Shown here in pieces: positions 7,370 through 58,111 of a DNA stretch of 64,000 nt; position 1 is the stretch's first letter, and every line of letters begins with the position of its first letter. The DNA is from Thermosediminibacteraceae bacterium (GTDB taxonomy: Bacteria; Bacillota; Thermosediminibacteria; Thermosediminibacterales; Thermosediminibacteraceae). Under the pieces are notes generated by a model. That model had not been told where the DNA came from. It ran no database searches and saw only the letters and a program-made list of their open reading frames with translations. The position numbers and the translations under genes are program-made. Location: positions 3,292-67,291 of the forward strand of contig JAKKUQ010000003.1 of assembly GCA_021890755.1 (NCBI GenBank), written 5' to 3'.

Positions 7370-8386
7370 GTGAAGGACCAGGATGAGCATAAAATTCTTG
7401 AAAAATTAGAAAAACATATATCGCCTATACTTCCATCGACTATCAGGAAGGTTTTTTTTAAACTGCCTGTAGATAAGTTGGAAAAAGTAGAAGAGATTAG
7501 GTTGCGCCGTAGAAAACCGCTTATGATTGTTGAGGGAAGGTCAGATTATATGATTACACAAGATGGAGCTATAACCGATAATCCCAACAGCGCTTACATT
7601 GTTACCGACGAAGATGCCGCAAAAACCTTTCAGTTGATTAGCCAAAGTTCAGTTTACGCCTTGGAAGATGAGATTAAAAACGGTTTTATTACATTAAAAG
7701 GTGGCCACAGGGTAGGAATAGTGGGAAAGGTTGTGTTGGAAGACGGTAAGATAAAGACAATAAAACATATATCAGGTTTTAATATAAGAATAGCAAGAGA
7801 AGTCTTAGGTGCTGCCGATGAAGCACTTCCATTCGTTATAGACGAAAGAGGAGAATTTTTAAATACTATGATAATATCGCCGCCAAAAGCTGGAAAAACC
7901 ACTTTGCTTAGAGATTTGATAAGGCAACTTAGCTCAGGGAATTCTCCATTATGCTCCAGAGGATTTAAAATCGGAGTGGTCGATGAAAGGTCAGAAATTG
8001 CCTGTTGCTATGAAGGTGTTCCCCAAAATGATGTGGGCATAAGAACAGATGTCCTTGATAGCTGCCCAAAAGCTCGAGGTATAATGATCCTCTTAAGATC
8101 GATGTCGCCGGATATTATAGCCACCGATGAAATTGGAAGGCCTGAAGATGTGGAGGCTGTCGAAGAGGCTTTGAATGCCGGTGTCAAACTGTTAACTACC
8201 GCTCACGGAAAAGATTTGGAGGACGCCGCTAAAAGACCTACCATACGAAAATTGATAGAAAATAATTGTTTCGAAAGGTTCTTAATACTTGGGTTCAGCA
8301 AGGGAGTAGGTACTTTAGAAAAAGTAGTGGATGGTAAACATTTCCAGATAATCTTTGAACGGAGGGATAAGGGGGGAAGTTTTTAA
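7370..8386 (+). CDS. spoIIIAA: Stage III sporulation protein AA (secretion-type ATPase)
   Basis: Walker A SPPKAGKTTLLRD and Walker B-like IATDEIG. First gene of an eight-gene spoIIIA-like run. Confidence 0.9.
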   Translation: MKDQDEHKILEKLEKHISPILPSTIRKVFFKLPVDKLEKVEEIRLRRRKPLMIVEGRSDYMITQDGAITDNPNSAYIVTDEDAAKTFQLISQSSVYALEDEIKNGFITLKGGHRVGIVGKVVLEDGKIKTIKHISGFNIRIAREVLGAADEALPFVIDERGEFLNTMIISPPKAGKTTLLRDLIRQLSSGNSPLCSRGFKIGVVDERSEIACCYEGVPQNDVGIRTDVLDSCPKARGIMILLRSMSPDIIATDEIGRPEDVEAVEEALNAGVKLLTTAHGKDLEDAAKRPTIRKLIENNCFERFLILGFSKGVGTLEKVVDGKHFQIIFERRDKGGSF

Positions 8387-8907
8387 TGCTTTTTAAGATA
8401 CTAGGAAGTATATTGGTTATTTTTTCCTCGACAATGATAGGCTTTACTATTGCAGGTTTTTACAAGCAGCGACCCAGGGCATTAAGGAATTTTCAGATAG
8501 CTCTGTCGATGCTGGAAACGGAAATCGATTATGGTCAATCCCCCCTCCCGGAAGCTCTAAATAACGTAAGCAAAAGATGCGAGTCATCGATTTCTATGTT
8601 TTTGAAGAGGGTAAGGCAACTATTGCTCTCGCTGGAAGGGTATACCGCTGGAGAAGCCTGGGAAATCGCTTTAAAAGAATTCAAAGCTCAGTTTCCACTT
8701 AATGAATCCGATTTCGAGATATTAGCTGCTTTCGGGAAATATCTTGGCTCGTCTGACAAGGACGACCAGATAAGAAATTTGAAACTAACTTTATCTCAGT
8801 TAAAACAGCAGGAAACTTTGGCGATTGAAGAAAGACAGAAAAATGAAAAACTATGGAAATACCTGGGAGTTTTATCCGGGTTGACGGTAGTTCTTTTGTT
8901 ATATTAA
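8386..8907 (+). CDS. spoIIIAB: Stage III sporulation protein AB
   Basis: N- and C-terminal TM helices, size and position within the operon. Start overlaps the AA stop (ATGA-type coupling). Confidence 0.85.
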   Translation: MLFKILGSILVIFSSTMIGFTIAGFYKQRPRALRNFQIALSMLETEIDYGQSPLPEALNNVSKRCESSISMFLKRVRQLLLSLEGYTAGEAWEIALKEFKAQFPLNESDFEILAAFGKYLGSSDKDDQIRNLKLTLSQLKQQETLAIEERQKNEKLWKYLGVLSGLTVVLLLY

Positions 8908-8932
8908 TCGAGATAAACGAGAGGTGTTATCA

Positions 8933-9130
8933 ATGGATGTGGATGTTTTGTTTAAGATAGCTGGGATAGGCATCGTCATATCCATACTGAGCAAAGTGCT
9001 GGATGAAGCGGGAAGAAAAGAACAGGCTCAGATGACCACCTTGGTAGGAGTAGTTATCGTTCTAATGATGGTTATTCAGCTTATAAGCAGGCTGTTTGAC
9101 AACGTAAAATCGATGTTCCACCTTTATTAA
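8933..9130 (+). CDS. spoIIIAC: Stage III sporulation protein AC
   Basis: Small two-TM protein beginning MDVDVLFKIAGIGI. SD GAGAGG lies 8 nt upstream. Confidence 0.85.
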   Translation: MDVDVLFKIAGIGIVISILSKVLDEAGRKEQAQMTTLVGVVIVLMMVIQLISRLFDNVKSMFHLY

Positions 9131-9142
9131 GGGGATGTGGGC

Positions 9143-9529
9143 ATGGAGATAATTCAGATTGTGGGAATCAGCCTTGTAGCAGCCGTAATGGTGGTTTTGC
9201 TGAGGGATGACCGCCCGGAGATAGCTTTGCAGATTAGTATAATCGCGGGAGCCATAGTTTTTCTTTTAATGCTGAACAAAATAGCCTCAGCTTTAAACGT
9301 TCTACAGGATATGGCCCAAAAAGCAAATATAGACTTTATATATTTGAATACAATACTAAAAATCGTAGGGATAGCTTATGTGGCCGAATTCGGTGCTCAA
9401 ATTTGCAGAGATTCGGGATCTTCCTCTTTAGCAGCAAAAATCGAATTTGCCGCAAAAATCATAATAATGCTGCTTTCTATACCGATACTTATGGCGGTTC
9501 TTGAACTTTTGTTGAAAATACTCCCCTGA
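9143..9529 (+). CDS. spoIIIAD: Stage III sporulation protein AD
   Basis: Polytopic ~128-aa protein. Conserved FGAQICRDSG motif. Operon position. Confidence 0.85.
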   Translation: MEIIQIVGISLVAAVMVVLLRDDRPEIALQISIIAGAIVFLLMLNKIASALNVLQDMAQKANIDFIYLNTILKIVGIAYVAEFGAQICRDSGSSSLAAKIEFAAKIIIMLLSIPILMAVLELLLKILP

Positions 9530-9533
9530 AAAG

Positions 9534-47316: not shown

Positions 47317-48408
47317 GTGAAAGACAAAATTTTAATAAAAAGGAGACCTACTAAAAAGGTATACGTGGGCGATATTTATATAGGTGGAGATTCTCCGGTA
47401 ACAGTTCAATCTATGACAAATACAAAGACCCATGATGTAAAGGCAACTGTGAACCAAATCCTAGCCCTTGAAGAGGCAGGTTGCGATATTGTACGCGTTG
47501 CTGTTCCCGATATGGAAGCCGCCAAAGCTATTGCTGAAATTAAAAAGAACATCCATATTCCTCTAGTTGCCGACATCCATTTCGATTACCGGCTTGCCCT
47601 TGAAGCAATAAAAAACGGTGCAGACAAAGTGAGGATAAATCCGGGCAACATTGGAGGATTAGAAAGAATAAAAAAGGTTGTCAAAGCAGCCCGAGAAAGA
47701 AATATTCCCATAAGAATTGGCGTGAATTCCGGATCGTTGGAAAAGGATATACTTGAAAAATACGGATCACCTTCTGCTGAAGCTTTGGTAGAAAGTGCCT
47801 TAAGGCATGTGAACATCCTTGAAGGACTGGATTTTAACGATATAATAATTTCAATAAAATCTTCCGATGTGTTAACTACAGTAAAAGCGTATGAAATGCT
47901 GGCGAAAAAGGTGGATTATCCTTTTCATCTTGGAGTAACCGAAGCAGGAACCATCTTTTCCGGCACAATAAAATCCGCAATCGGATTAGGTATACTACTT
48001 TACGAGGGAATAGGAGATACTATTAGGGTATCGCTGACAGGGGACCCCGTCGAAGAAGTACGGGTAGGTAAGGAAATATTAAAGAGTCTCAATTTGATTG
48101 AGAGCGGAGTTAACCTAATATCTTGTCCGACTTGTGGCCGTTGCCAAATAAATCTCATAGGCATAGCGCGTGAAGTCGAGAAAAAGTTAACTGGTATAAA
48201 AGAGCCCATCACAGTGGCTGTAATGGGATGCATAGTCAACGGTCCCGGTGAAGCAAGAGAAGCTGATATAGGAATCGCCGGCGGAAATGGAAAAGTTGCA
48301 GTGTTTAAAAAAGGCCGTATATTCAAAACGGTACCCGAAAGTGAAGCAGTTGATGTATTGATATCGGAAATACTGAGTATGTTGGATGAGAAAAAATATA
48401 AAGGCTAA
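47317..48408 (+). CDS. ispG: 4-hydroxy-3-methylbut-2-en-1-yl diphosphate synthase (flavodoxin)
   Basis: [22 protein letters not shown] and GC.VNGPGE motifs. Confidence 0.95.
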
Positions 48409-48490: not shown

Positions 48491-48898
48491 ATGAAAAGAA
48501 AAATTCCGTTTTTTACAAAACTACTATTCATATTGCTTATTTTTAATGTTTTTTTATTAGTATTTACAATCGTTTCAGTAAATTCGACTCCGGATAAATA
48601 TTTAAACAGGATATTGCAGGATATAGAAAACGGTAATGTTATGCAGTACAAACATAAAGAGAAACTTTTAGAAATAAAACAAATTTTTGACGAGCTAAGG
48701 AAAGCTGGATTTGAGAGGATTAATTATCATATTTCATACACCGGTAATAGCTATAGTGTAGATGCATCCTTCATAAATGTCAACAGCGGCTTTATTAGAA
48801 CTTTACTTCTTGATTTTAAATTCCGAAAAAAATATGCACTTTGTTATGAATTGGAAGATGTTAAACTAGAAAAATTAGGTGATAAAAATGCAAACTAA
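48491..48898 (+). CDS. Hypothetical membrane-anchored protein
   Basis: SD AAGGGG upstream. N-terminal TM helix plus a ~100-aa soluble domain. No family recognised. Confidence 0.5.
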   Translation: MKRKIPFFTKLLFILLIFNVFLLVFTIVSVNSTPDKYLNRILQDIENGNVMQYKHKEKLLEIKQIFDELRKAGFERINYHISYTGNSYSVDASFINVNSGFIRTLLLDFKFRKKYALCYELEDVKLEKLGDKNAN

Positions 48899-49223
48899 CA
48901 ATAAAAATATTATGCTTTGTGAACATTGTGGAAGGATAATAGAAACAAAAGAAGATTTAGTGGTGGCATTTTATTTTTTCACTCTGTCGGTATTCCATAA
49001 TGAATGCTATGGAAAAGGGCTGAAAAATAACGTTTTCCTAAGCTCACTTCCATTGAATGGAAATATATCTATTATTGCGACAATTATATTGTCTGTATTC
49101 AGTATATTGGTTTTTTTCTTCAGTCCAGAATATTATCCAAAGGTAATATCAGGGATAATAGCAATAATATGCCTTTTGCTACGGATTTACATATGGTTTA
49201 ATTACGAAAGCAAGTTCGATTAG
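48888..49223 (+). CDS. Hypothetical protein with an N-terminal CxxC...H..C segment and two or three TM helices
   Basis: SD AGGTGA lies before ATG 48888. LCEHCGR...FHNECYG is followed by hydrophobic helices. Overlaps the previous ORF. Confidence 0.45.
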   Translation: MQTNNKNIMLCEHCGRIIETKEDLVVAFYFFTLSVFHNECYGKGLKNNVFLSSLPLNGNISIIATIILSVFSILVFFFSPEYYPKVISGIIAIICLLLRIYIWFNYESKFD

Positions 49224-49228
49224 CTAGT

Positions 49229-49257
49229 TTGACAAAAAAATTTAACTCTGATAAAAT
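49229..49257 (+). promoter_or_regulatory. Sigma-A-type promoter of the proS T-box leader
   Basis: TTGACA, a 17-nt spacer, then TAAAAT. Confidence 0.6.
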
Positions 49258-49263
49258 AACTAA

Positions 49264-49503
49264 AAAAAATGAAAACCGTGCTAAATGGCGTTGATGGAGG
49301 CCAGTAAGAAGTAAACCCGATGAAAAGAGAGCGGTCCCATAGGCTGAAAGGCCCGCCATCGGGAGCTTCTGAAACCCACCTCCGGAGTCTGCCTGAAACG
49401 GCCGGCTTTTGCCGTTATCCAAATGAGTAACCCTTGAACTTTATTTTAAATTAGGGTGGTACCGCGAAAAAACCTTCGCCCCTTTGGTGCGAAGGTTTTT
49501 TTA
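49264..49503 (+). promoter_or_regulatory. T-box leader (tRNA-sensing riboswitch) with a proline specifier
   Basis: Conserved T-box sequence AAATTAGGGTGGTACCGCG (49448-49466). Stem I has an AGAGA element. The specifier loop GAAA-CCC-A (CCC at 49375-49377) is closed by GGAGG/CCTCC. Terminator AACCTTCGC/GCGAAGGTT plus a T run (49471-49503). Confidence 0.88.
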
Positions 49504-49547: not shown

Positions 49548-50984
49548 ATGGAAGAAAAATACGTCAAGGAAATTACCGCCAAATCAGAAGATTTTTCTCA
49601 ATGGTACGTAGACGTTATTATAAAAGGCGAACTTGCCGATTACTCTCCGGTTAGAGGATGTATGGTCATAAGACCTTATGGCTATGCTATCTGGGAAAAT
49701 ATGCAAAAACTCCTAGATCGCCGTTTCAAAGAAACAGGCCACAAGAACGCTTATTTTCCTTTATTCATACCCGAATCTTTGCTTCGAAAGGAAGCTGAGC
49801 ATATTGAGGGATTTGCCCCAGAAGTAGCATGGGTAACTCATGGGGGACAGGAGGAGCTTGCAGAACGCTTAGCCATTCGGCCGACCTCAGAGACAATTAT
49901 ATGTAGTATGTACTCAAAATGGATAAAATCTTGGAGGGATTTACCCGTTCTTATCAATCAATGGTGCAGCGTCGTTAGATGGGAAAAGAGCACCAAACCT
50001 TTCCTCAGAACAGCTGAATTCCTATGGCAGGAGGGCCATACTGCTCACAGGACAGAAGAGGAAGCTGAAGAAGAGACATTACTCATGCTTGAAGTATATC
50101 GAGATTTTGTTGAAACGGAACTGGCATTGCCAGTTATTAAGGGAAGAAAATCTGAAAACGAAAAATTTGCTGGTGCCTTAAGAACTTATACCATAGAAGC
50201 TATGATGAGCGATGGCAAAGCATTACAGGCCGGAACATCGCATAATTTAGGCCAGCACTTCTCAAAAGTGTTTGACATTCAGTTCTTAGACCAAGACGGC
50301 AAACTAAAGTATGTATGGCAGACTTCTTGGGGGGTTTCAACCCGCCTGATAGGCGCTGTTATAATGACTCATGGAGATGATAGGGGTCTCAAATTACCTC
50401 CTAGAATCGCACCAATCCAAGTAATTATCGTTCCTATTTTTGGCCAGCAAAAAGAAGCAGTCCTTGAGAAATCAAGGGAGCTATATCAGCTTCTTAAAAA
50501 CCACTTTAGAGTAGAGTTGGATGACCGCGATGAGCATACACCTGGGTGGAAATTTAACGAATGGGAAATGAAGGGAGTCCCAGTAAGGCTTGAAATAGGC
50601 CCGAGAGATATGGCACAAAACCAGGTTTTGCTGGTAAGAAGAGATACAGGCGAAAAAATATCAGTAAAGGAAGCAGATTTGATCAACTATTTATCTACTT
50701 TACTTGATGATATTCAGGCAAATATGTTCAAAGAAGCTAAAAAATTTATGGATGATAATACTACAACTACCACTAGTTTTGAAGAATTAAAAGACGTTGT
50801 AGCTAATAAAAAGGGATTTGTGAAAGCAATGTGGTGTGGCGATGGAGAATGCGAAAAGAGGGTAAAAGAAGAAACCGGCGCAACTCTCCGATGCATTCCT
50901 TTCGACCAGGAAGAGATTTCTGATAAATGTGTCGTATGCGGAAGAAAAGCACAAAAAATGGTCTACTTCGCAAAATCTTATTAA
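49548..50984 (+). CDS. proS: Prolyl-tRNA synthetase, archaeal/eukaryote-like type (no INS editing domain)
   Basis: 478 aa. Class II motifs (RPTSETII, RTAEFLWQEGHTAH, GVSTR). C-terminal zinc-binding domain ending ...YFAKSY. Preceded by the Pro T-box. Confidence 0.95.
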   Translation: MEEKYVKEITAKSEDFSQWYVDVIIKGELADYSPVRGCMVIRPYGYAIWENMQKLLDRRFKETGHKNAYFPLFIPESLLRKEAEHIEGFAPEVAWVTHGGQEELAERLAIRPTSETIICSMYSKWIKSWRDLPVLINQWCSVVRWEKSTKPFLRTAEFLWQEGHTAHRTEEEAEEETLLMLEVYRDFVETELALPVIKGRKSENEKFAGALRTYTIEAMMSDGKALQAGTSHNLGQHFSKVFDIQFLDQDGKLKYVWQTSWGVSTRLIGAVIMTHGDDRGLKLPPRIAPIQVIIVPIFGQQKEAVLEKSRELYQLLKNHFRVELDDRDEHTPGWKFNEWEMKGVPVRLEIGPRDMAQNQVLLVRRDTGEKISVKEADLINYLSTLLDDIQANMFKEAKKFMDDNTTTTTSFEELKDVVANKKGFVKAMWCGDGECEKRVKEETGATLRCIPFDQEEISDKCVVCGRKAQKMVYFAKSY

Positions 50985-51000
50985 AGGAAGGTATCTCAAA

Positions 51001-52482
51001 ATGAAGATAAGCGAAATATTTCCATCTACACTCTTTAACCTCCCGGCCGGTTTAAACAGCCGGGGGGAAAAATTTCTTTATCAAAGCGGGATATTGCGCA
51101 CAGGAGAAACGCTAACCCTTTTTGACCTAGGAGTTAAATTGTTTCAAAATTTAACGGAGTTTATAGAAGACTATTTAATTCTAACAGGCTTTAAAAAGAT
51201 AATGCAAAAGTACCCCACTTTTACAGACGTAGTAAAAGAGGTAACTTCCCCTAAGCAACTCCCTCTCTTTTTTTATAGCTTCTCTTCTGGTGGATTTCAC
51301 CTTCACATGTACGCCATAGGTGAAAAAAAATCATATATAATTAACAACGCGATTAATTACATGCTGGAAAGGTACCTACGGGATATGGTGGACGTAGGAA
51401 GGGGAAATGAGAAACTATCAAAAGCGGTGATGATCCCGAATGCTCCATTTAAATTCTTTTACTGTTCTTCCTGCGGGTACTCGACTACTGCTGACTATCC
51501 CCTAACCTATTCCGTAAATACCCTTTTACCCGGCGAAGAAAAACCTATGGAAAGAGTCTACACGCCCGCTAAAAGAACAATAAAGGATTTATGCGAATTT
51601 TTAGGAATAAAGCCTGAAGAAGCTGTAAAAACGATGATATATAAAGCTGTAACGGAGAAAGAAGAAGAAGAATATGTTGCTGTTCTAGTGCCGGGTTCGC
51701 GAAATATAGATGAAAAAAAATTAAAGGTAGCATTAGGAGTGCAAAAGGTGGAACTTGCTGATTTAGAAACTGTTGAACGACTAACAGGGGCACCCCATGG
51801 CTTTGCAGGTCCATGCGGACTAAAAGGTATAAAGATCGTCGCTGATACAGAAATTTCTCGCATGAAAAATTTCGTAGCCGGAGCTAATGTAAAAGATTAT
51901 CATTTAATTAACGTAAACCCTGGGCGGGATTTTGAAATAGACTTATTGGCCGATATCAAGGAGACGGTTGAAGGAGATTGCTGTCCTGTTTGCGGAAATA
52001 GGATAACCCAAAGTGAAGGTATAATAATAGCCGACTGGGAAAGAGTAATTTACCAGAGCAATGAAATAGAAATAGGAGTTCTTTATCTTGATAACTTGAT
52101 ATTAGCTATGGCTGAACAACATTGTGATGAACAGGGATTAATTTGGCCCGAAGATATAGCTCCATATAAAGCGATTGTAATACCAATTAACGCAAAAGAC
52201 GAAAATCAAATAAATTATGCCATGAAAATATATGAAGAACTTAATAAAATAATGCCAACCGCTCTAGACGACAGAACTCAAAGTCCTGGAGTGAAATTTA
52301 AAGATGCTGAACTTCTGGGGTTTCCCATTAGGATAATTATAGGCCCAAAATCACTGGAAAAAGGCGTTGCAGAAATAAAACTCAGGAAGACCGAAGAGAA
52401 GGTAGATGTTGAACTTGATAAAGTAACAGAAAAAGTGTGTGAAATTTTAGGCTTACCACCAAAGAGCGACGTTGAATTTTAA
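51001..52482 (+). CDS. Bacterial-type ProRS paralog with intact INS editing and anticodon-binding domains but an apparently degenerate catalytic core
   Basis: SD AAGGAAGG lies before ATG 51001. Retains the ProRS-like N-terminus, SPKQLPLFFY, INS motifs (AVKTMIYKAV, GAPHGFAGPCG, FVAGAN) and the anticodon-binding domain (IAPYKAIVIPIN...GVKFKDAELLGFPIRIIIG). I cannot find GPTHEE, motif 2 (FRDE.RPR) or motif 3. Confidence 0.8.
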   Translation: MKISEIFPSTLFNLPAGLNSRGEKFLYQSGILRTGETLTLFDLGVKLFQNLTEFIEDYLILTGFKKIMQKYPTFTDVVKEVTSPKQLPLFFYSFSSGGFHLHMYAIGEKKSYIINNAINYMLERYLRDMVDVGRGNEKLSKAVMIPNAPFKFFYCSSCGYSTTADYPLTYSVNTLLPGEEKPMERVYTPAKRTIKDLCEFLGIKPEEAVKTMIYKAVTEKEEEEYVAVLVPGSRNIDEKKLKVALGVQKVELADLETVERLTGAPHGFAGPCGLKGIKIVADTEISRMKNFVAGANVKDYHLINVNPGRDFEIDLLADIKETVEGDCCPVCGNRITQSEGIIIADWERVIYQSNEIEIGVLYLDNLILAMAEQHCDEQGLIWPEDIAPYKAIVIPINAKDENQINYAMKIYEELNKIMPTALDDRTQSPGVKFKDAELLGFPIRIIIGPKSLEKGVAEIKLRKTEEKVDVELDKVTEKVCEILGLPPKSDVEF

Positions 52483-52536: not shown

Positions 52537-53181
52537 ATGCCGGTGGCAGCAATTATCCCAGCCTACAACGAGGAAAAAACTGTAGGAAATATCCTAAAAC
52601 TTTTAAAATCGATTGAGAGCATTGACGAGATAATCCTGGTGAGCGACGGATCGACAGATAATACTGCTAACATCGGCAGAAGCTATGGTGTAAAAGTCAT
52701 AGAACTTCCTCAAAATCGTGGAAAAGTCGGGGCTGTTATGTGCGGCGTAAAAAGTACCGACGCGGATGTTATACTCCTTTTGGATGCAGATTTAGTGGGC
52801 CTTAAAAGAGAGCATGTTTGCGAGCTTTTAAAGCCAGTTCTTGAAGAAGGAGCAGAAATGACTGTGGGAGTTTTCAAAAACGGCAGAGGAGCTACTGACC
52901 TTGCCCAAAAAATAGCTCCCTTCTTATCAGGTCAGCGTGCAATTCGTCGGTGGGTATTTGAGAAATTAGAAAGTTATAATATTAAAGATTACGGTCTCGA
53001 GATAGCCCTTACAATTTTAGCTAATAAAGAAAATTTAAAGATAAAAACTGTCATACTAAATGAGCTTACACATGTTATGAAAGAAGAAAAGCGTGGTTTT
53101 ATAATTGGCGCTATTTCGCGTTTGAAAATGTACTGGGATATACTAGCCTGTATATTGAGATTGAAACTAGAGGTGTTCTAA
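52537..53181 (+). CDS. Family 2 glycosyltransferase (short, soluble)
   Basis: IIPAYNEEKTVG...VSDGSTDNT...LLDADL DxD-type GT-A motifs. Confidence 0.75.
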   Translation: MPVAAIIPAYNEEKTVGNILKLLKSIESIDEIILVSDGSTDNTANIGRSYGVKVIELPQNRGKVGAVMCGVKSTDADVILLLDADLVGLKREHVCELLKPVLEEGAEMTVGVFKNGRGATDLAQKIAPFLSGQRAIRRWVFEKLESYNIKDYGLEIALTILANKENLKIKTVILNELTHVMKEEKRGFIIGAISRLKMYWDILACILRLKLEVF

Positions 53182-53847
53182 GTGGAACTTTCTCAGATGG
53201 ATATATTCTTGAGACTTTTCCTCTCGGTATTGCTGGGGGGCATTATAGGTATAGAAAGAGAAAGCGTAAATAGACCAGCGGGTTTTAGGACCCATGTACT
53301 GGTTTGCACCGGTTCAACCCTGACAATGCTGGTTTCTATATACATGTTTGAAAAATACCGCTTGCTTACTACTATGGACCCAGCACGAATTGCAGCACAG
53401 GTGGTTAGCGGCATTGGATTTTTAGGGGCGGGCACCATTTTGAGGGTAGGACCAACAGTAAAAGGATTAACTACCGCTGCTAGCCTCTGGACAGTAGGTT
53501 CTATTGGGCTTGCCATAGGTTGCGGATTTTATCTTGCTGCAGTAGTCGCCACTCTTCTTACTTTCATAACCCTGATGTCCCTTTCGCGAATCGAAAATTT
53601 AATAATCGGAAGAAAATTGTTACATTCTATGTGTTTAATCGTCGATGATAAGCCTGGTCAAATAGGCAAGATTGGCACGATTCTTGGCGAAATGGGTGTA
53701 AGTATTAAAAAAATACGAATTGAAAGTGAGAAAGACGATTCAAAGGTTATTATAAGGCTTTCAATACGCCTACCATCTAATGTGAAGCTAGATGAAGTAA
53801 TTTCGCGGTTTTCTCAAGTTGAAGGAATTTATAGTATCGAAACATAA
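53182..53847 (+). CDS. mgtC: MgtC/SapB family membrane protein with a C-terminal ACT-like domain
   Basis: RLFLSVLLGGIIGIERE...AGFRTH...GIGFLGAGTI signature. Soluble C-terminal regulatory domain. Confidence 0.85.
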   Translation: MELSQMDIFLRLFLSVLLGGIIGIERESVNRPAGFRTHVLVCTGSTLTMLVSIYMFEKYRLLTTMDPARIAAQVVSGIGFLGAGTILRVGPTVKGLTTAASLWTVGSIGLAIGCGFYLAAVVATLLTFITLMSLSRIENLIIGRKLLHSMCLIVDDKPGQIGKIGTILGEMGVSIKKIRIESEKDDSKVIIRLSIRLPSNVKLDEVISRFSQVEGIYSIET

Positions 53848-53860
53848 CTGGGGGATATCT

Positions 53861-56800
53861 ATGACCGGACTGAAAATGTTGCTGGACAGTTCCAAATTTA
53901 ACGATATAGAAAAACAATTACTCGAAAAGGCTCTTATAAAAAAAGTAATAGTGAATACCAAAAAAAGAGTAATAAAAATAAAACTTTCTTCCGAAGAACA
54001 ACTAGTCGAAGAATTAGTTTCTAAAGTCCGGGAGGAACTAAAGAAAAAACTAAGAGGCTGCTTAGAAGTATATCTTGACTTTAATGAAGAAAATCAGAAT
54101 TCACCGAAAAAAAAGGCAAGTGAACTAATAAAAGAAAAATGGGAAGAATGCCTTAAAAACCTTTTTAAAAGAATTCCTTCTGCACGAATTTGGTTACTTA
54201 ACAGCACATACGAGTACGAAAAGGGTACTCTATTTGTTTATATAGAAAAAAACGGAATTGAATACCTACATAAAAAGAAATGCGGCAGAATAATCGAAGA
54301 ATTCTTTAAAAAACAAAATATTAACCTAAACGTCGTTTTCAAAGAAAAAGAGCAGATTGAGTATTATGATATATCTGAAGAAGATAAAAAGCTGGTCGAA
54401 TCACTGCTAGAAAAGTACAATGAAAAATCCGTCGATTCTTCTGATAAGGATGTTCTGGATGAGATCATTTTAGGAAAAGATGTAGACGGCGAGCCCGTTC
54501 CATTAAATGAAATAGCTAATGAGGCTAAAGAAATCATAGCATGCGGGCAGATATTTGAAGTAGAGTGCCGAGAAATTAAAAATGGTACCAAATTAGTTAC
54601 ATGTGGGCTTACTGATGGTTCCAATTCCTTAGCTGTAAAAATCTTTGTTACAGATGAAAAAAAATGCAAAGTTGAAAAAATAAAAGAGGGAATTTGGGTA
54701 AAAATAAGAGGTAAAGTTGAAAATAATGCACATTCCGGAGAGTTGGAGCTTATTCCTAAGGACATTAAGATTGTCCCAAAACCTGTGAGGTTAGACAACA
54801 GCGATAAAAAAAGGGTTGAACTACATCTTCATACTAAATACAGTGCTATGGATGCGGTTTGCTCGCCAAAAGAAGTAATAGAATTGTGTAAGCAATGGGG
54901 GCATAAAGCAGTAGCCTTTACAGATCACGGAGTAGTCCAATCTTTCCCTGAAGTTTATGAAGCCGCAAAGGAAGCAGGAATTAAACCAATTTACGGCGTT
55001 GAAGCCTACATATTCGATGATGAGTTTCCAGTAATATCTGAACCTCCTAAAGGAAATATTGATGACTTCGTATACGTGGTCACAGATATTGAAACAACAG
55101 GTCTATCTTTAGATTTTGATGAAATAATTGAAATAGGTGCGGTAAAAATTTACCGAGGAGAAATCATAGATAGATTTCATTCCTTTGTCAAACCCCGCAA
55201 ACCCATTTCGCTACATGTAACTAACTTGACGGGTATTAGAAACGATATGGTTGAAAAAGCACCATATGTTGAAGATGTGATATCAGACTTTTTAAAGTTT
55301 ATAGGAGATGATATTTTCGTTGCTCACAATGCTGAATTTGATGCTGGATTCATAAGAAGAGACTCAGAAAGATGCGGTATGAAGTTCAACAATAAAGTAT
55401 TGGATACGTTAAATCTTTCCGCTCTTATCTTCCCCGAGCTTAAAAACCACCGCCTAGAGACCATAGCAAAAAAATTTAATATAAATATGGGTAAGCACCA
55501 CAGAGCTGATGATGATGCCAACACTGCTGCATTGATACTTATCGAGCTAATTAAAAAACTGAAAGAACAAGGGATCGATGACCTTTCTAAAATAAATCAT
55601 GTAAATAAAACAGCCACTCAACACTTAGATTCATATCATGCCACTATATTGGTAAAAAACGCTGAAGGCCTAAAGAATCTTTATAAACTAGTTTCAATCT
55701 CTCACTTAGAATATTTTTACAGGCATCCCCGTATCCCCAAAAGCCTTCTAAAAAAATACAGAAATGGACTTATTATAGGTTCAGGTTGCGAAGCGGGAGA
55801 ACTATTCCAGAGTTTAATCTACCACCATTCCGAAGAAGACATAAAGCGAATAGTCGATTTTTATGACTTCCTAGAAATTCAGCCTTTGCAAAATAATAAA
55901 TTCTTGATAGAAAAGGGTATTCTGACCAATGAAACAAGCCTTCAGGAGATAAATAAAAAAATTTATTGGTTGGGAAAAAAATATAATAAACCCGTTGTAA
56001 TTACCGGCGATGTGCATTTTTTGAACCCAGAAGATGAAATATTTAGGAGAATTTTGCTAACTATCCAAGGATATAAGGATAGTGATGTAAGTTCCGGGCT
56101 TTATCTAAAAACAACCGAAGAAATGCTAAAAGAATGTCAATATCTTGGCGAAGAAGCTGCAAAAGAAGTAGTTATAGAAAATCCAAACAGAATCGCCGAC
56201 GAAATAGAAGACAAGATAAAACCCGTTCCTGATGAGCTTTACACTCCTAAAATTGAAGGAGCCGATGAAGAAATTATTAACATGACCTATAAAAGGGCCA
56301 AAGAAATATACGGAGAAGAGCTTCCAGAGATCGTGAAAAAAAGAATAGAGCGAGAGTTGAATTCTATAGTAAATAACGGATATTCGGTAATATACCTTAT
56401 TGCCCATAAACTTGTAAAAAAATCGCTGGACGACGGTTATCTTGTGGGTTCTCGAGGCTCTGTAGGTTCATCGCTGGTGGCAACAATGTGCGGAATAACA
56501 GAAGTAAATCCACTCCCGCCTCATTATTTATGTCCAAACTGTAAAAAATCTATCTTCCCAGAAAACGTAGAAGGGATAGTAGGGCCAGACCTTCCTGATA
56601 AAAACTGTCCGAACTGTGGATGTCCTATGAAAAAGGACGGATATAATATACCCTTTGAAGTTTTTATGGGATTTGAAGGGGATAAAGTTCCAGATATAGA
56701 CCTTAATTTCTCGGGCGAATATCAGCCTATTGCTCATAAATATACAGAGGAATTATTCGGAAAAGACAATGTATTTCGTGCCGGCACCATATCAACTATA

Positions 56801-58111
56801 GCAGAAAAAACTGCTTATGGCTTCGTAAAAGCATACTTAGAAGAGAAGAACTTGAATGTATCAGAATATGAGGTAAAACGTTTGGCTGCAGGTATAACGG
56901 GAGTTAAACGTACAACAGGGCAGCACCCAGGTGGATTAATGATCCTTCCTAAGGACAAAGAAATATATGAATTTACTCCCATACAGTACCCTGCTGACGA
57001 CAAAGAATCTGGAGTAATCACTACACATTTTGATTATCATTCAATTAGCGAAAGGCTGTTAAAACTTGATCTCCTTGGCCACGACGATCCTACAGTTATA
57101 AAAATGCTGGAAGAAGAAACAGGGGTTGATGCAAAAAAAATCCCTCTAGATGACAGTGCAACTATGAAAATATTTTCCTCAGTTGATCCTCTTGGAGTAA
57201 GACCGGAAGATATAGGCACCACTGTAGGAACATTGGGAGTCCCAGAATTTGGAACCAAATTTGTAAGGCAGATGCTAGAAGAAACTCGTCCTACTACTTT
57301 TTCAGAGTTAATCAGGATAAGCGGTCTTTCCCACGGTACCGACGTATGGCTTAACAATGCCCAGGACCTCATAAAGAATAAGGTGGCAACTCTTAAAGAA
57401 GTTATTGCAACCCGTGACGACATAATGATACACTTATTAGAAAAAGGCGTTGAACCCAAAATAGCTTTCAACATAATGGAGAAAGTAAGAAAGGGCAAAG
57501 GATTAAAGCCGGAAGAGGAAGAGATTTTAAAGGAAAACGGCGTAGAACAGTGGTTCATAGAATCCTGTAAGAAGATAAAATACATGTTTCCAAAAGCTCA
57601 CGCAGTAGCTTATGTAATAATGGCTTTCAGAATTGCTTATTTCAAAGTTCACTATCCCGAAGCCTTTTACGCCACTTATTTTACGGTAAGAGCTGATGAC
57701 TTCGACGCAGAGCTAATCCTCCAAGGTCCTAAAAAAATAAGAGAAGTAATTGATGAAATAAACAAAAAAGAAAAAAGTGCAACACCGAAAGAAAAGAATT
57801 TACTCACGATTTTAGAAGTAGCGAATGAAATGTATATGAGAGGTATTCAGTTTGTACCAATCGACCTTTATAGATCTCATTATAAGAAATTTATCATTAC
57901 AAAGGATGGTATACTCCCCCCGCTCAACGCCTTGCCGGGGCTTGGACTTGCTGCAGCTCAAAATATTTATAATGAAAGGCAAAAGGGGAAGTTTACCTCT
58001 ATCGAAGATCTTCGCATGCGGGCAAAAGTAACTAAAAATGTAATAGAAATCCTCCGACAAAATGGTGTATTAAACGGACTCCAAGAAACAAATCAGATTA
58101 GCCTCTTTTAA
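53861..58111 (+). CDS. polC: DNA polymerase III alpha subunit, PolC type (PHP domain, 3'-5' exonuclease, polymerase)
   Basis: ~1416 aa. Exonuclease motifs (VVTDIETTGLS, VAHNAEFD, HRADDDA), zinc-finger CPNC...CPNC, PHP and polymerase core. Start chosen at ATG 53861 after SD GGGGGA. Confidence 0.97.
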   Translation: MTGLKMLLDSSKFNDIEKQLLEKALIKKVIVNTKKRVIKIKLSSEEQLVEELVSKVREELKKKLRGCLEVYLDFNEENQNSPKKKASELIKEKWEECLKNLFKRIPSARIWLLNSTYEYEKGTLFVYIEKNGIEYLHKKKCGRIIEEFFKKQNINLNVVFKEKEQIEYYDISEEDKKLVESLLEKYNEKSVDSSDKDVLDEIILGKDVDGEPVPLNEIANEAKEIIACGQIFEVECREIKNGTKLVTCGLTDGSNSLAVKIFVTDEKKCKVEKIKEGIWVKIRGKVENNAHSGELELIPKDIKIVPKPVRLDNSDKKRVELHLHTKYSAMDAVCSPKEVIELCKQWGHKAVAFTDHGVVQSFPEVYEAAKEAGIKPIYGVEAYIFDDEFPVISEPPKGNIDDFVYVVTDIETTGLSLDFDEIIEIGAVKIYRGEIIDRFHSFVKPRKPISLHVTNLTGIRNDMVEKAPYVEDVISDFLKFIGDDIFVAHNAEFDAGFIRRDSERCGMKFNNKVLDTLNLSALIFPELKNHRLETIAKKFNINMGKHHRADDDANTAALILIELIKKLKEQGIDDLSKINHVNKTATQHLDSYHATILVKNAEGLKNLYKLVSISHLEYFYRHPRIPKSLLKKYRNGLIIGSGCEAGELFQSLIYHHSEEDIKRIVDFYDFLEIQPLQNNKFLIEKGILTNETSLQEINKKIYWLGKKYNKPVVITGDVHFLNPEDEIFRRILLTIQGYKDSDVSSGLYLKTTEEMLKECQYLGEEAAKEVVIENPNRIADEIEDKIKPVPDELYTPKIEGADEEIINMTYKRAKEIYGEELPEIVKKRIERELNSIVNNGYSVIYLIAHKLVKKSLDDGYLVGSRGSVGSSLVATMCGITEVNPLPPHYLCPNCKKSIFPENVEGIVGPDLPDKNCPNCGCPMKKDGYNIPFEVFMGFEGDKVPDIDLNFSGEYQPIAHKYTEELFGKDNVFRAGTISTIAEKTAYGFVKAYLEEKNLNVSEYEVKRLAAGITGVKRTTGQHPGGLMILPKDKEIYEFTPIQYPADDKESGVITTHFDYHSISERLLKLDLLGHDDPTVIKMLEEETGVDAKKIPLDDSATMKIFSSVDPLGVRPEDIGTTVGTLGVPEFGTKFVRQMLEETRPTTFSELIRISGLSHGTDVWLNNAQDLIKNKVATLKEVIATRDDIMIHLLEKGVEPKIAFNIMEKVRKGKGLKPEEEEILKENGVEQWFIESCKKIKYMFPKAHAVAYVIMAFRIAYFKVHYPEAFYATYFTVRADDFDAELILQGPKKIREVIDEINKKEKSATPKEKNLLTILEVANEMYMRGIQFVPIDLYRSHYKKFIITKDGILPPLNALPGLGLAAAQNIYNERQKGKFTSIEDLRMRAKVTKNVIEILRQNGVLNGLQETNQISLF

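Follow-up and report, generated by a model that had tools for sequence, protein, structure and literature searches.

A degenerate prolyl-tRNA synthetase behind an editing-less proS in Thermosediminibacterales as a candidate trans-editing factor

Organisms with a prolyl-tRNA synthetase (ProRS) that lacks the INS editing domain use trans factors such as ProXp-ala (PMC3973320). The locus described here raises the question of whether a displaced synthetase can itself come to serve as such a factor. It lies in a 64-kb stretch of DNA from a Thermosediminibacteraceae bacterium (contig JAKKUQ010000003.1), the whole of which we refer to as the window. An INS-less E-type (archaeal/eukaryote-type) proS is followed there, after a gap of 16 nucleotides (nt), by the gene for a degenerate P-type ProRS that cannot plausibly aminoacylate tRNA. 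What, then, is this second protein kept for? We suggest that it is the displaced resident proS of the site and that it rather probably now acts as an anticodon-guided trans-editing deacylase, which removes alanine from Ala-tRNAPro on behalf of the E-type enzyme.

Lost and retained parts of the degenerate ProRS

The gene and its parts are placed in the window as follows.

51001–52482, + strand: degenerate P-type ProRS (pseudo-synthetase), 493 residues, described from Pfam and NCBIfam scans, alignments, an AlphaFold2 model and Foldseek
50985–50991, + strand: ribosome-binding site AGGAAGG of this gene, 9 nt 5' of the ATG
51001–51561, + strand: residues 1–187, class II core remnant that has lost the TxE block, the motif 2 loop and GAIGG..HEF by deletion and still has N-terminal helices, a helix-strand resembling motif 1, SPKQLPLFFYSFS and the first of the two CxxC pairs
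51562–51930, + strand: residues 188–310, INS editing domain (Pfam tRNA_edit, 96.9 bits)
51628–51630, 51799–51813 and 51901–51903, + strand: codons of the key INS residues K210, G267–P271 and H301, respectively, mapped to E. coli ProRS
51931–52155, + strand: residues 311–385, with the second CxxC, a beta-hairpin in place of GIEVGH..KYS and motif 3, and a helix leading into the anticodon-binding domain (alignment and AlphaFold2)
52156–52440, + strand: residues 386–480, class IIa anticodon-binding domain (Pfam HGTP_anticodon, 72.4 bits)

The ATG start is supported because the ribosome-binding site lies just upstream of it and because the N-termini of the orthologues agree. In the Pfam scan of all 493 residues, only tRNA_edit (PF04073; residues 188–307, gathering threshold 25.5 bits) and HGTP_anticodon (residues 390–479) were matched, and there was no match to tRNA-synt_2b, the class II core. 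Scores for the two NCBIfam models of bacterial proS fall well short of the cut-offs (NF006625, 251.8 versus 558; TIGR00409, 179.2 versus 306.7), and the matches are confined to the INS and anticodon-binding domains. These two parts alone also align to bacterial ProRS in a sequence search of the PDB (5znj, 1.7e-50; 2j3l, 6.2e-44).

We located four deleted blocks by aligning the protein with canonical P-type ProRS and with the E. coli enzyme (from NC_000913). The first corresponds to E. coli residues 76 to ~114 (PADLW...GPTHEE) and comprises the TxE substrate-binding block, which is what has been lost between motif 1 and motif 2. In the second, the motif 2 loop, FRDEVRPRFGVMRSREF is reduced to SSGG. 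The third is GSIGGS.SHEF (GAIGG..HEF), and the fourth takes out ~17 residues including motif 3 (GCYGIGVTR), so that no GxGxGxxR is present. We scored 14 key aminoacylation residues (T109, E111, R140, E142, R146, R153, F155, H208, E410, H413, G442, G445, G447 and R450 in E. coli). None of them is kept in the degenerate ProRS, as compared to 13–14 in canonical relatives. The losses include the motif 2 residues R140, E142, R146, R153 and F155 and the motif 3 residues G442, G445, G447 and R450, and in the proline- and adenylate-binding elements (GPTHEE, HEF and EVGH) H208, E410 and H413 are not conserved. What is left of the core are the N-terminal helices, the motif 1-like helix-strand and SPKQLP. 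This core remnant is the least constrained region of the protein, with an identity of 54% to the orthologue in Thermosediminibacter oceani and 31% to that in Thermovenabulum. With none of the 14 residues left and with the motif 2 loop and motif 3 deleted, the protein cannot plausibly aminoacylate tRNA.

By contrast, the residues needed for editing are intact, i.e. T188 (T257 in E. coli), I194 (I263), L197 (L266), K210 (K279), G267...P271 (G336–P340, the GxxxP motif) and H301 (H369). The combination of Lys, GxxxP and His is the signature of the INS superfamily, a K279A variant of ProRS is editing-deficient, and the preference of INS for Ala over Pro is governed by L266 and H369 (bioRxiv 10.1101/2020.09.11.293571). 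The identity of T188, I194 and L197 to T257, I263 and L266 of the E. coli INS domain points to an Ala-sized pocket. The DDR...GVKFKDAELLGFP motif of the anticodon-binding domain is likewise present, and D423, D424, R425 and G430–A436 (DDR...GVKFKDA) are invariant between degenerate and canonical ProRS. Both CxxC pairs, C155/C158 (51463–51474) and C328/C331 (51982–51993), are kept and flank the INS insertion. Such pairs are common to the degenerate proteins and most canonical Bacillota ProRS and are absent from E. coli ProRS. They hint at a structural zinc site at the hinge of the INS insertion, one that outlived catalysis.

An AlphaFold2 model built from a 79-sequence alignment has a mean predicted local distance difference test value of 91.7 and a predicted template modelling (TM) score of 0.85, with strands predicted at residues 336–351 and 354–362 in the region that replaces motif 3. 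In Foldseek, the model matches E. faecalis ProRS (2j3l) over its whole length with a TM score of 0.84, and the domain order core-INS-core-anticodon-binding is kept. Because the superposition is full-length, the remnant core is predicted to still hold the INS and anticodon-binding domains in ProRS geometry.

Much of this had been anticipated. The original prediction, which was made from the DNA sequence, had listed the N-terminal helices, SPKQLP and both CxxC pairs, the INS hallmarks and the class IIa anticodon-binding domain as kept, GPTHEE and motif 2 as gone and the EVGH/motif 3 region as shortened, and had concluded that the protein cannot aminoacylate; all of these claims agree with the alignments and domain scores reported here. 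Its statement that there are apparently no catalytic motifs applies to motifs 2 and 3, but not in full to motif 1, because the helix-strand of this motif is kept in a degenerate form. The profile alignment and AlphaFold model that it had proposed as a check show that motifs 2 and 3 are lost rather than merely divergent, and that the catalytic residues of INS are retained.

Operon, synteny and selection at the locus

The surroundings of the degenerate gene bear on where it came from and on what it is expressed with. The features concerned are the following.

47317–48408, + strand: ispG, the upstream syntenic anchor (GcpE, i.e. ispG, is at the same place in the neighbourhoods of relatives)
49229–49257, + strand: promoter-like site before the T-box leader (TTGACA, 17-nt spacer, TG-TAAAAT), 11 of 12 consensus positions and an extended -10 TG; a consensus match only
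49282–49502, + strand: T-box leader (RF00230) with the Pro specifier CCC at 49375–49377, an antiterminator sequence, and a terminator hairpin and T-run at ~49468–49502
49548–50984, + strand: E-type proS without an INS editing domain (TIGR00408, 642.7 bits versus a cut-off of 437; tRNA-synt_2b, HGTP_anticodon and ProRS-C_1)
52537–58111, + strand: downstream anchors identified by Pfam, namely a GT2 glycosyltransferase (52537–53181), MgtC/ACT (53182–53847) and polC (53819–58111)

By its family scores, the gene at 49548–50984 is a bona fide E-type proS and is predicted to be active. The RF00230 match spans 49282–49486 and scores 93.9 bits, as compared to a gathering score of 93. The leader and its specifier context GAA-CCC-A are conserved in T. 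oceani, Thermosediminibacter litoriperuensis and Thermovenabulum; in a scan of the whole loci the proS T-boxes of these relatives fall below the Rfam gathering score, while direct alignment shows that the leaders are homologous and conserved. In the window, the specifier region (49371–49378) reads GAAACCCA, which is one A more than the GAACCCA of the three relatives. No terminator-like site was found between the two ProRS genes, and they are predicted to be co-transcribed behind one Pro (CCC) T-box. Thus, the claims that the upstream proS is archaeal-like and without INS and that both genes sit behind a single Pro T-box have held up.

The original prediction had also called the degenerate ProRS a paralogue, and this part has to be given up. 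The gene order rseP, ispG, T-box, E-type proS, degenerate ProRS, GT2, MgtC/ACT, polC, rimP, nusA is the same in the window, T. oceani, T. litoriperuensis and Thermovenabulum. A canonical P-type proS of 567–577 residues fills the slot between ispG and GT2/MgtC/polC in Phosphitispora sp. TUW77 and Syntrophomonas erecta, where it is separated from ispG by 15–78 nt; some of the nearest full-length homologues belong to these organisms. Because the same slot holds a full-length P-type proS in other Bacillota, the degenerate ProRS is the resident gene, which decayed in place after insertion of an E-type gene upstream of it, and not a duplicate. The E-type proS of the window is 91% identical to that of Fervidicola, 90% to that of Thermovorax, 82% to that of Thermovenabulum, 80% to that of Biomaibacter and 74% to that of Tepidanaerobacter.

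Based on these data, we suggest the following history. In an ancestor of the Thermosediminibacterales, an E-type proS together with its Pro T-box leader would have inserted directly upstream of the resident P-type proS, and the incoming enzyme would have taken over the charging of tRNAPro. The resident gene, relieved of charging, may then have lost its ATP-, proline- and acceptor-stem-binding elements and kept the INS hydrolytic domain, the anticodon-binding domain and enough of the class II core to preserve ProRS geometry. Later, this editing-only remnant would have been retained in some lineages and deleted or disrupted in others. Insertion, loss of aminoacylation, and retention or deletion make up the simplest history of the locus.

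Where it is retained, the gene is under selection. Among 5.8 billion proteins, the only close relatives of the degenerate ProRS found are those of T. litoriperuensis, T. oceani and Caldanaerovirga acetigignens (63–65% identity), and the next matches are full-length ProRS at 30–33% identity. An exhaustive HMMER search added Thermovenabulum sp. (38–39% identity), in which the editing residues are still intact. The reading frame is unbroken in at least five genomes at 38–65% identity. A scan of the GTDB r232 species representatives with the window protein alone returned nothing, the back-translated peptides being unconserved, and a repeat with a four-sequence alignment returned only T. litoriperuensis and a split gene in Fervidicola; the genome of the window lies outside that collection. 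The ratio of non-synonymous to synonymous substitution rates (dN/dS, Nei-Gojobori) is 0.138 for T. oceani versus T. litoriperuensis, the pair with the least saturation, and 0.11–0.14 overall. By region and over three pairs, it is ~0.2 in the core remnant, 0.04–0.14 in INS and 0.06–0.09 in the anticodon-binding domain, as compared to 0.05 for the neighbouring E-type proS. In line with this difference, the window and T. oceani share 63% identity in the degenerate ProRS and 90% in the E-type proS. Thus, purifying selection on the degenerate ProRS is relaxed but clear, and it is concentrated on the INS and anticodon-binding domains.

A wider class of catalytically decayed ProRS

The degenerate ProRS of the window is not a one-off. 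A profile search of 1.84 billion cluster representatives gave 148 further proteins, which we aligned to E. coli ProRS. At most seven of the 14 catalytic residues are kept in 85 of the 119 full-length representatives, and 56 of those 85 keep three or fewer. Their lengths range from 472 to 619 residues, and erosion therefore spans everything from substitutions only to multi-block deletions as in the window. Every one of the 88 degenerate sequences has K279, G336, P340 and H369, and 87 of them have T257; position 263 is I or V and position 266 is L or V across the class. When 86 sequences were scanned with Pfam, tRNA_edit and HGTP_anticodon were found in every one and tRNA-synt_2b in 35. By these alignments, the window protein is one of a large, diverse and unnamed class, of which the search yielded at least 85 clusters (50% identity).

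Members with a named source are found in Inediibacterium massiliense and in metagenome-assembled genomes of Clostridiales, Anaerolineae and Thermoflexales, and in none of these is the degenerate gene beside a proS. Members are annotated as 'YbaK/EbsC family protein', 'hypothetical protein' or 'prolyl-tRNA synthetase'. In the Clostridia genome of I. massiliense (LN876586.1, locus 8001–15422), the genomic context differs from that of the window: a series of translation genes opens with a 499-residue degenerate ProRS-like gene, which is followed by a gltX-like gene, a T-box (RF00230, 108.8 bits, 11070–11283), cysE, cysS and a second class Ic synthetase gene (GlnRS- or GluRS-like).

A profile of 23 degenerate proteins run against the set of 5.8 billion proteins had canonical ProRS on top and returned no other degenerate protein. 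In a neighbour-joining tree with 100 bootstraps, only the clade of the window and Thermovenabulum is supported (100%). The other groupings of degenerate proteins have a support of at most 27% and are prone to long-branch attraction, and one origin and many origins both fit the tree. A catalytically dead ProRS that combines INS with an anticodon-binding domain was not encountered in the full-text literature, subscription-only papers being beyond reach, and a prior description is possible.

It is quite possible, and we put this forward tentatively, that degenerate P-type ProRS whose INS is live and whose anticodon-binding domain is kept constitute a widespread family in Bacillota, Chloroflexota and others, made up of trans-editing factors that are guided by the anticodon, and that this family arises, possibly repeatedly, when an E-type enzyme displaces the resident one. 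The INS superfamily would thereby gain a ninth branch, multidomain in build, and ThrRS-ed a bacterial counterpart. As part of the same proposal, and with the same reserve, the Thermosediminibacterales locus may preserve three stages of displacement at a single chromosomal site. If so, it would document the stepwise xenologous displacement of an essential gene, from the resident alone via an editing-only remnant beside the incomer to its complete loss, and would show that one sub-function of a displaced synthetase can be put to further use. Many entries named 'proline--tRNA ligase' or 'YbaK/EbsC family protein' would then be mis-annotated, and the class could be given a family model of its own.

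Function, rival explanations and known systems

Why would a decaying synthetase keep precisely these two domains? By itself, the INS domain does not recognise tRNA and needs the anticodon-binding domain on G35/G36, ~70 Å away, whereas the identity of the acceptor stem is irrelevant to INS editing (PMC3973320; PMC11295145). Because INS depends on anticodon binding, an editing-only derivative of ProRS would need exactly INS, the anticodon-binding domain and a scaffold to space them. It could do without the elements that bind ATP, proline and the acceptor stem, among them the motif 2 loop. Moreover, because the degenerate ProRS has no aminoacylation site of its own, it must act in trans on the product of another enzyme. 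In the mechanism that we propose, the anticodon-binding domain would bind G35/G36 of tRNAPro, and the aminoacylated 3' end would then enter the INS pocket. Ala-tRNAPro mis-made by the editing-less E-type enzyme would be hydrolysed in trans, while Pro-tRNAPro would be kept out by the conserved His gatekeeper. The single T-box-controlled operon would tie the amount of editor to the amount of synthetase. We take deacylase activity, specificity for Ala and dependence on the anticodon to be probable. The purifying selection described above and the dependence of INS on anticodon binding both fit a tRNAPro-specific role in Ala-tRNAPro trans-editing, which the original prediction had suggested.

Several points weigh against this proposal. 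The gene is dispensable in the close relatives Tepidanaerobacter, Biomaibacter and Fervidicola. In Biomaibacter acetigenes and Tepidanaerobacter syntrophicus, the slot holds the E-type proS alone with GT2 directly after it. In Fervidicola ferrireducens, the degenerate gene is cut by a TnpB-type insertion sequence, and ~85 codons (residues ~104–187) are missing. In strain Y170 of this species, the gene is split across two contig ends (NZ_LOED01000004 and NZ_LOED01000015; positions 8657–9133 of our locus L005 and 1–1170 of L004), with the N-terminus of a TnpB-like open reading frame on one contig end and its C-terminal zinc ribbon (Pfam Cas12f1-like_TNB) on the other; the part encoding INS and the anticodon-binding domain is still an intact open reading frame (L004 352–1170). 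Because the gene has been lost in sister lineages, its function is not indispensable. The evolutionary rate of the degenerate ProRS is also four to five times that of the neighbouring proS (dN 0.25 versus 0.055). That the editing residues are completely conserved across the wider class is due in part to the ranking profile, which contained INS and thereby favoured matches with an intact INS domain. Partnership with an E-type ProRS is known for Thermosediminibacterales loci only. A ProXp-ala or YbaK encoded elsewhere in these genomes would make the degenerate ProRS redundant, and binding of the tRNAPro anticodon would put the protein in competition with the synthetase for tRNA.

Among the rival explanations, one keeps the hydrolase and changes its substrate. 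E-type ProRS also mischarges Cys, and the INS pocket may have been retuned to Cys-, Ser-, alpha-aminobutyrate (Abu)- or azetidine-carboxylate-tRNAPro. Aminoacyl specificity varies widely in the INS superfamily (PMC11295145), and the L or V at position 266 and I or V at position 263 in the wider class concern a pocket whose size tunes specificity (bioRxiv 10.1101/2020.09.11.293571). In the window protein, however, this pocket equals that of the Ala-specific E. coli INS domain at T257, I263, L266 and H369, and its INS domain is far nearer to that of ProRS than to YbaK (TIGR00011, 38.6 bits versus a cut-off of 153), so that we consider another substrate improbable.

It is also unlikely that the gene is a slowly decaying, functionless relic, i.e. 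a redundant resident proS heading for deletion as in the sister lineages. The complete loss in Biomaibacter and Tepidanaerobacter, the disruption in Fervidicola, the faster evolution compared to the neighbouring genes and the spectrum of erosion across related proteins would all be expected of a relic. However, dN/dS is far under 1 and lowest on precisely the INS and anticodon-binding domains, the frame has stayed open in genomes that have diverged to as little as 38% identity, and the ribosome-binding site is retained. Above all, decay has been selective, with all catalytic residues gone and all editing residues kept, and neutral decay is disfavoured because it would not spare editing residues.

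Similarly, we give little weight to a non-catalytic tRNAPro binder, for instance a buffer or sink for tRNAPro, a modulator of the T-box response or a partner subunit of the E-type ProRS in the way that HisZ is for HisG. A conserved anticodon-binding domain under the control of a tRNAPro-sensing T-box, together with the retention of SPKQLP and of the motif 1-like helix-strand, which is a class II dimer-interface element, would suit such a protein, and synthetase paralogues with regulatory roles are known, e.g. HisZ (PMC7373986). However, a binder leaves the conservation of the INS Lys, GxxxP and gatekeeper His across 88 divergent sequences unexplained, and in most other lineages the gene adjoins neither a proS nor a T-box. 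Finally, the NCBI label 'proline--tRNA ligase' on orthologues and the overall ProRS fold notwithstanding, a still-active ProRS with highly divergent motifs is hardly conceivable, since four segments (the TxE block, the motif 2 loop, HEF and motif 3) are physically missing, not one of the 14 residues is left, the protein scores under every NCBIfam proS cut-off and has no Pfam class II core match, and a bona fide proS adjoins it.

How does a putative Ala-tRNAPro trans-editing deacylase of this build compare to known systems? One close counterpart is P-type ProRS with INS in cis (E. coli, E. faecalis; PDB 2J3L), to which it is homologous over its whole length and with which it shares the INS active-site residues, the class IIa anticodon-binding domain and, in other Bacillota, the chromosomal slot. 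By analogy, the editing mechanism, i.e. selection of the tRNA by the anticodon-binding domain and hydrolysis by INS, is expected to be shared as well. Unlike P-type ProRS, the degenerate protein has the four deleted blocks, lacks every scored aminoacylation residue and falls under all family cut-offs.

In logic, the pair of degenerate ProRS and E-type proS resembles the crenarchaeal ThrRS-ed/ThrRS-cat pair, in which ThrRS-cat charges without editing and ThrRS-ed, composed of editing and anticodon-binding domains, proofreads in trans (PMC3592468; PMC7373986; PMC11295145). The two systems differ in the amino acid (Thr versus Pro), in the unrelated fold of the editing domain (DTD-like versus INS/YbaK) and in their archaeal versus bacterial distribution. 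In addition, the charging partner is a split copy in the case of ThrRS-cat and a xenologue of different structural type in the case of the degenerate ProRS. The NCBIfam model for ThrRS-ed (NF011500) gives 16.1 bits versus a cut-off of 362, in the anticodon-binding domain only. Membership of this family is thus ruled out, and the analogy is functional.

ProXp-ala (PrdX) has the same proposed substrate and role, belongs to the same superfamily and carries the same K/H/GxxxP signature. It is, however, a single domain that reads the acceptor stem (G72/A73), whereas the degenerate ProRS, with its core scaffold and anticodon-binding domain, is predicted to depend on the anticodon. The original prediction had drawn this contrast with the single-domain ProXp and YbaK factors, and a 2024 review agrees with it, as the eight free-standing INS families described are all single-domain (PMC11295145). 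With 493 residues, a core remnant and an anticodon-binding domain, the degenerate ProRS is ruled out as a member of any of these families. YbaK, the Cys-tRNAPro deacylase, has an INS-like fold in common with the degenerate ProRS, and several members of the wider class carry the NCBI label 'YbaK/EbsC family protein'. It differs in having no tRNA-binding domain, in working in a complex with ProRS and in its pocket residues, and the degenerate ProRS does not belong to the YbaK family (TIGR00011, cut-off 153.25; NF007951, 22.1 versus 243). A six-frame phmmer search found no second INS-like gene in the window.

Two other cases involve an additional ProRS. ProRSx of Streptomyces and Kitasatospora is a divergent extra bacterial-type ProRS, of which truncated forms keep the anticodon-binding domain; it is active, occurs in Actinomycetes and is encoded beside tRNAProX, whose mutant anticodon leads to the insertion of Pro at Ala, Thr or Asn codons (PMC10404621). 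ARAGORN detected no tRNA gene in the window, and with its dead catalytic site the degenerate ProRS is not part of a ProRSx/tRNAProX system. In Bacillus thuringiensis, a P-type and an E-type ProRS are present in one Bacillota genome (PMC11229370), which gives a plausible picture of the state before decay; unlike the pair in the window, both are active and their genes are at separate loci.

If anticodon-guided trans-editing by the degenerate ProRS holds true, it would represent a new architecture for quality control at proline codons, in which the tRNA is chosen by its anticodon as in cis-editing ProRS, in contrast to choice by the acceptor stem (ProXp-ala) or via a complex with the synthetase (YbaK). 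The protein would also be a natural separation-of-function variant of ProRS for studying how the anticodon gates INS hydrolysis ~70 Å away, which has been called an open question (PMC3973320).

Two features in the window stand apart from these questions. Between ispG and the T-box promoter, two small overlapping hydrophobic open reading frames (48491–48898 and 48879–49223, + strand; 135 and 114 residues) have no Pfam family. They have counterparts in T. oceani and T. litoriperuensis (156 and 109–110 residues) and none in Thermovenabulum, Biomaibacter and Tepidanaerobacter. Because of this distribution, they appear to be a later addition to the locus and not part of the original proS insertion. 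Farther upstream, at 16617–17233 on the + strand, lies a full-length ornate large extremophilic (OLE) RNA (RF01071, 525.5 bits, model positions 1–616 of 616), which fits an anaerobic, extremophilic Bacillota host.

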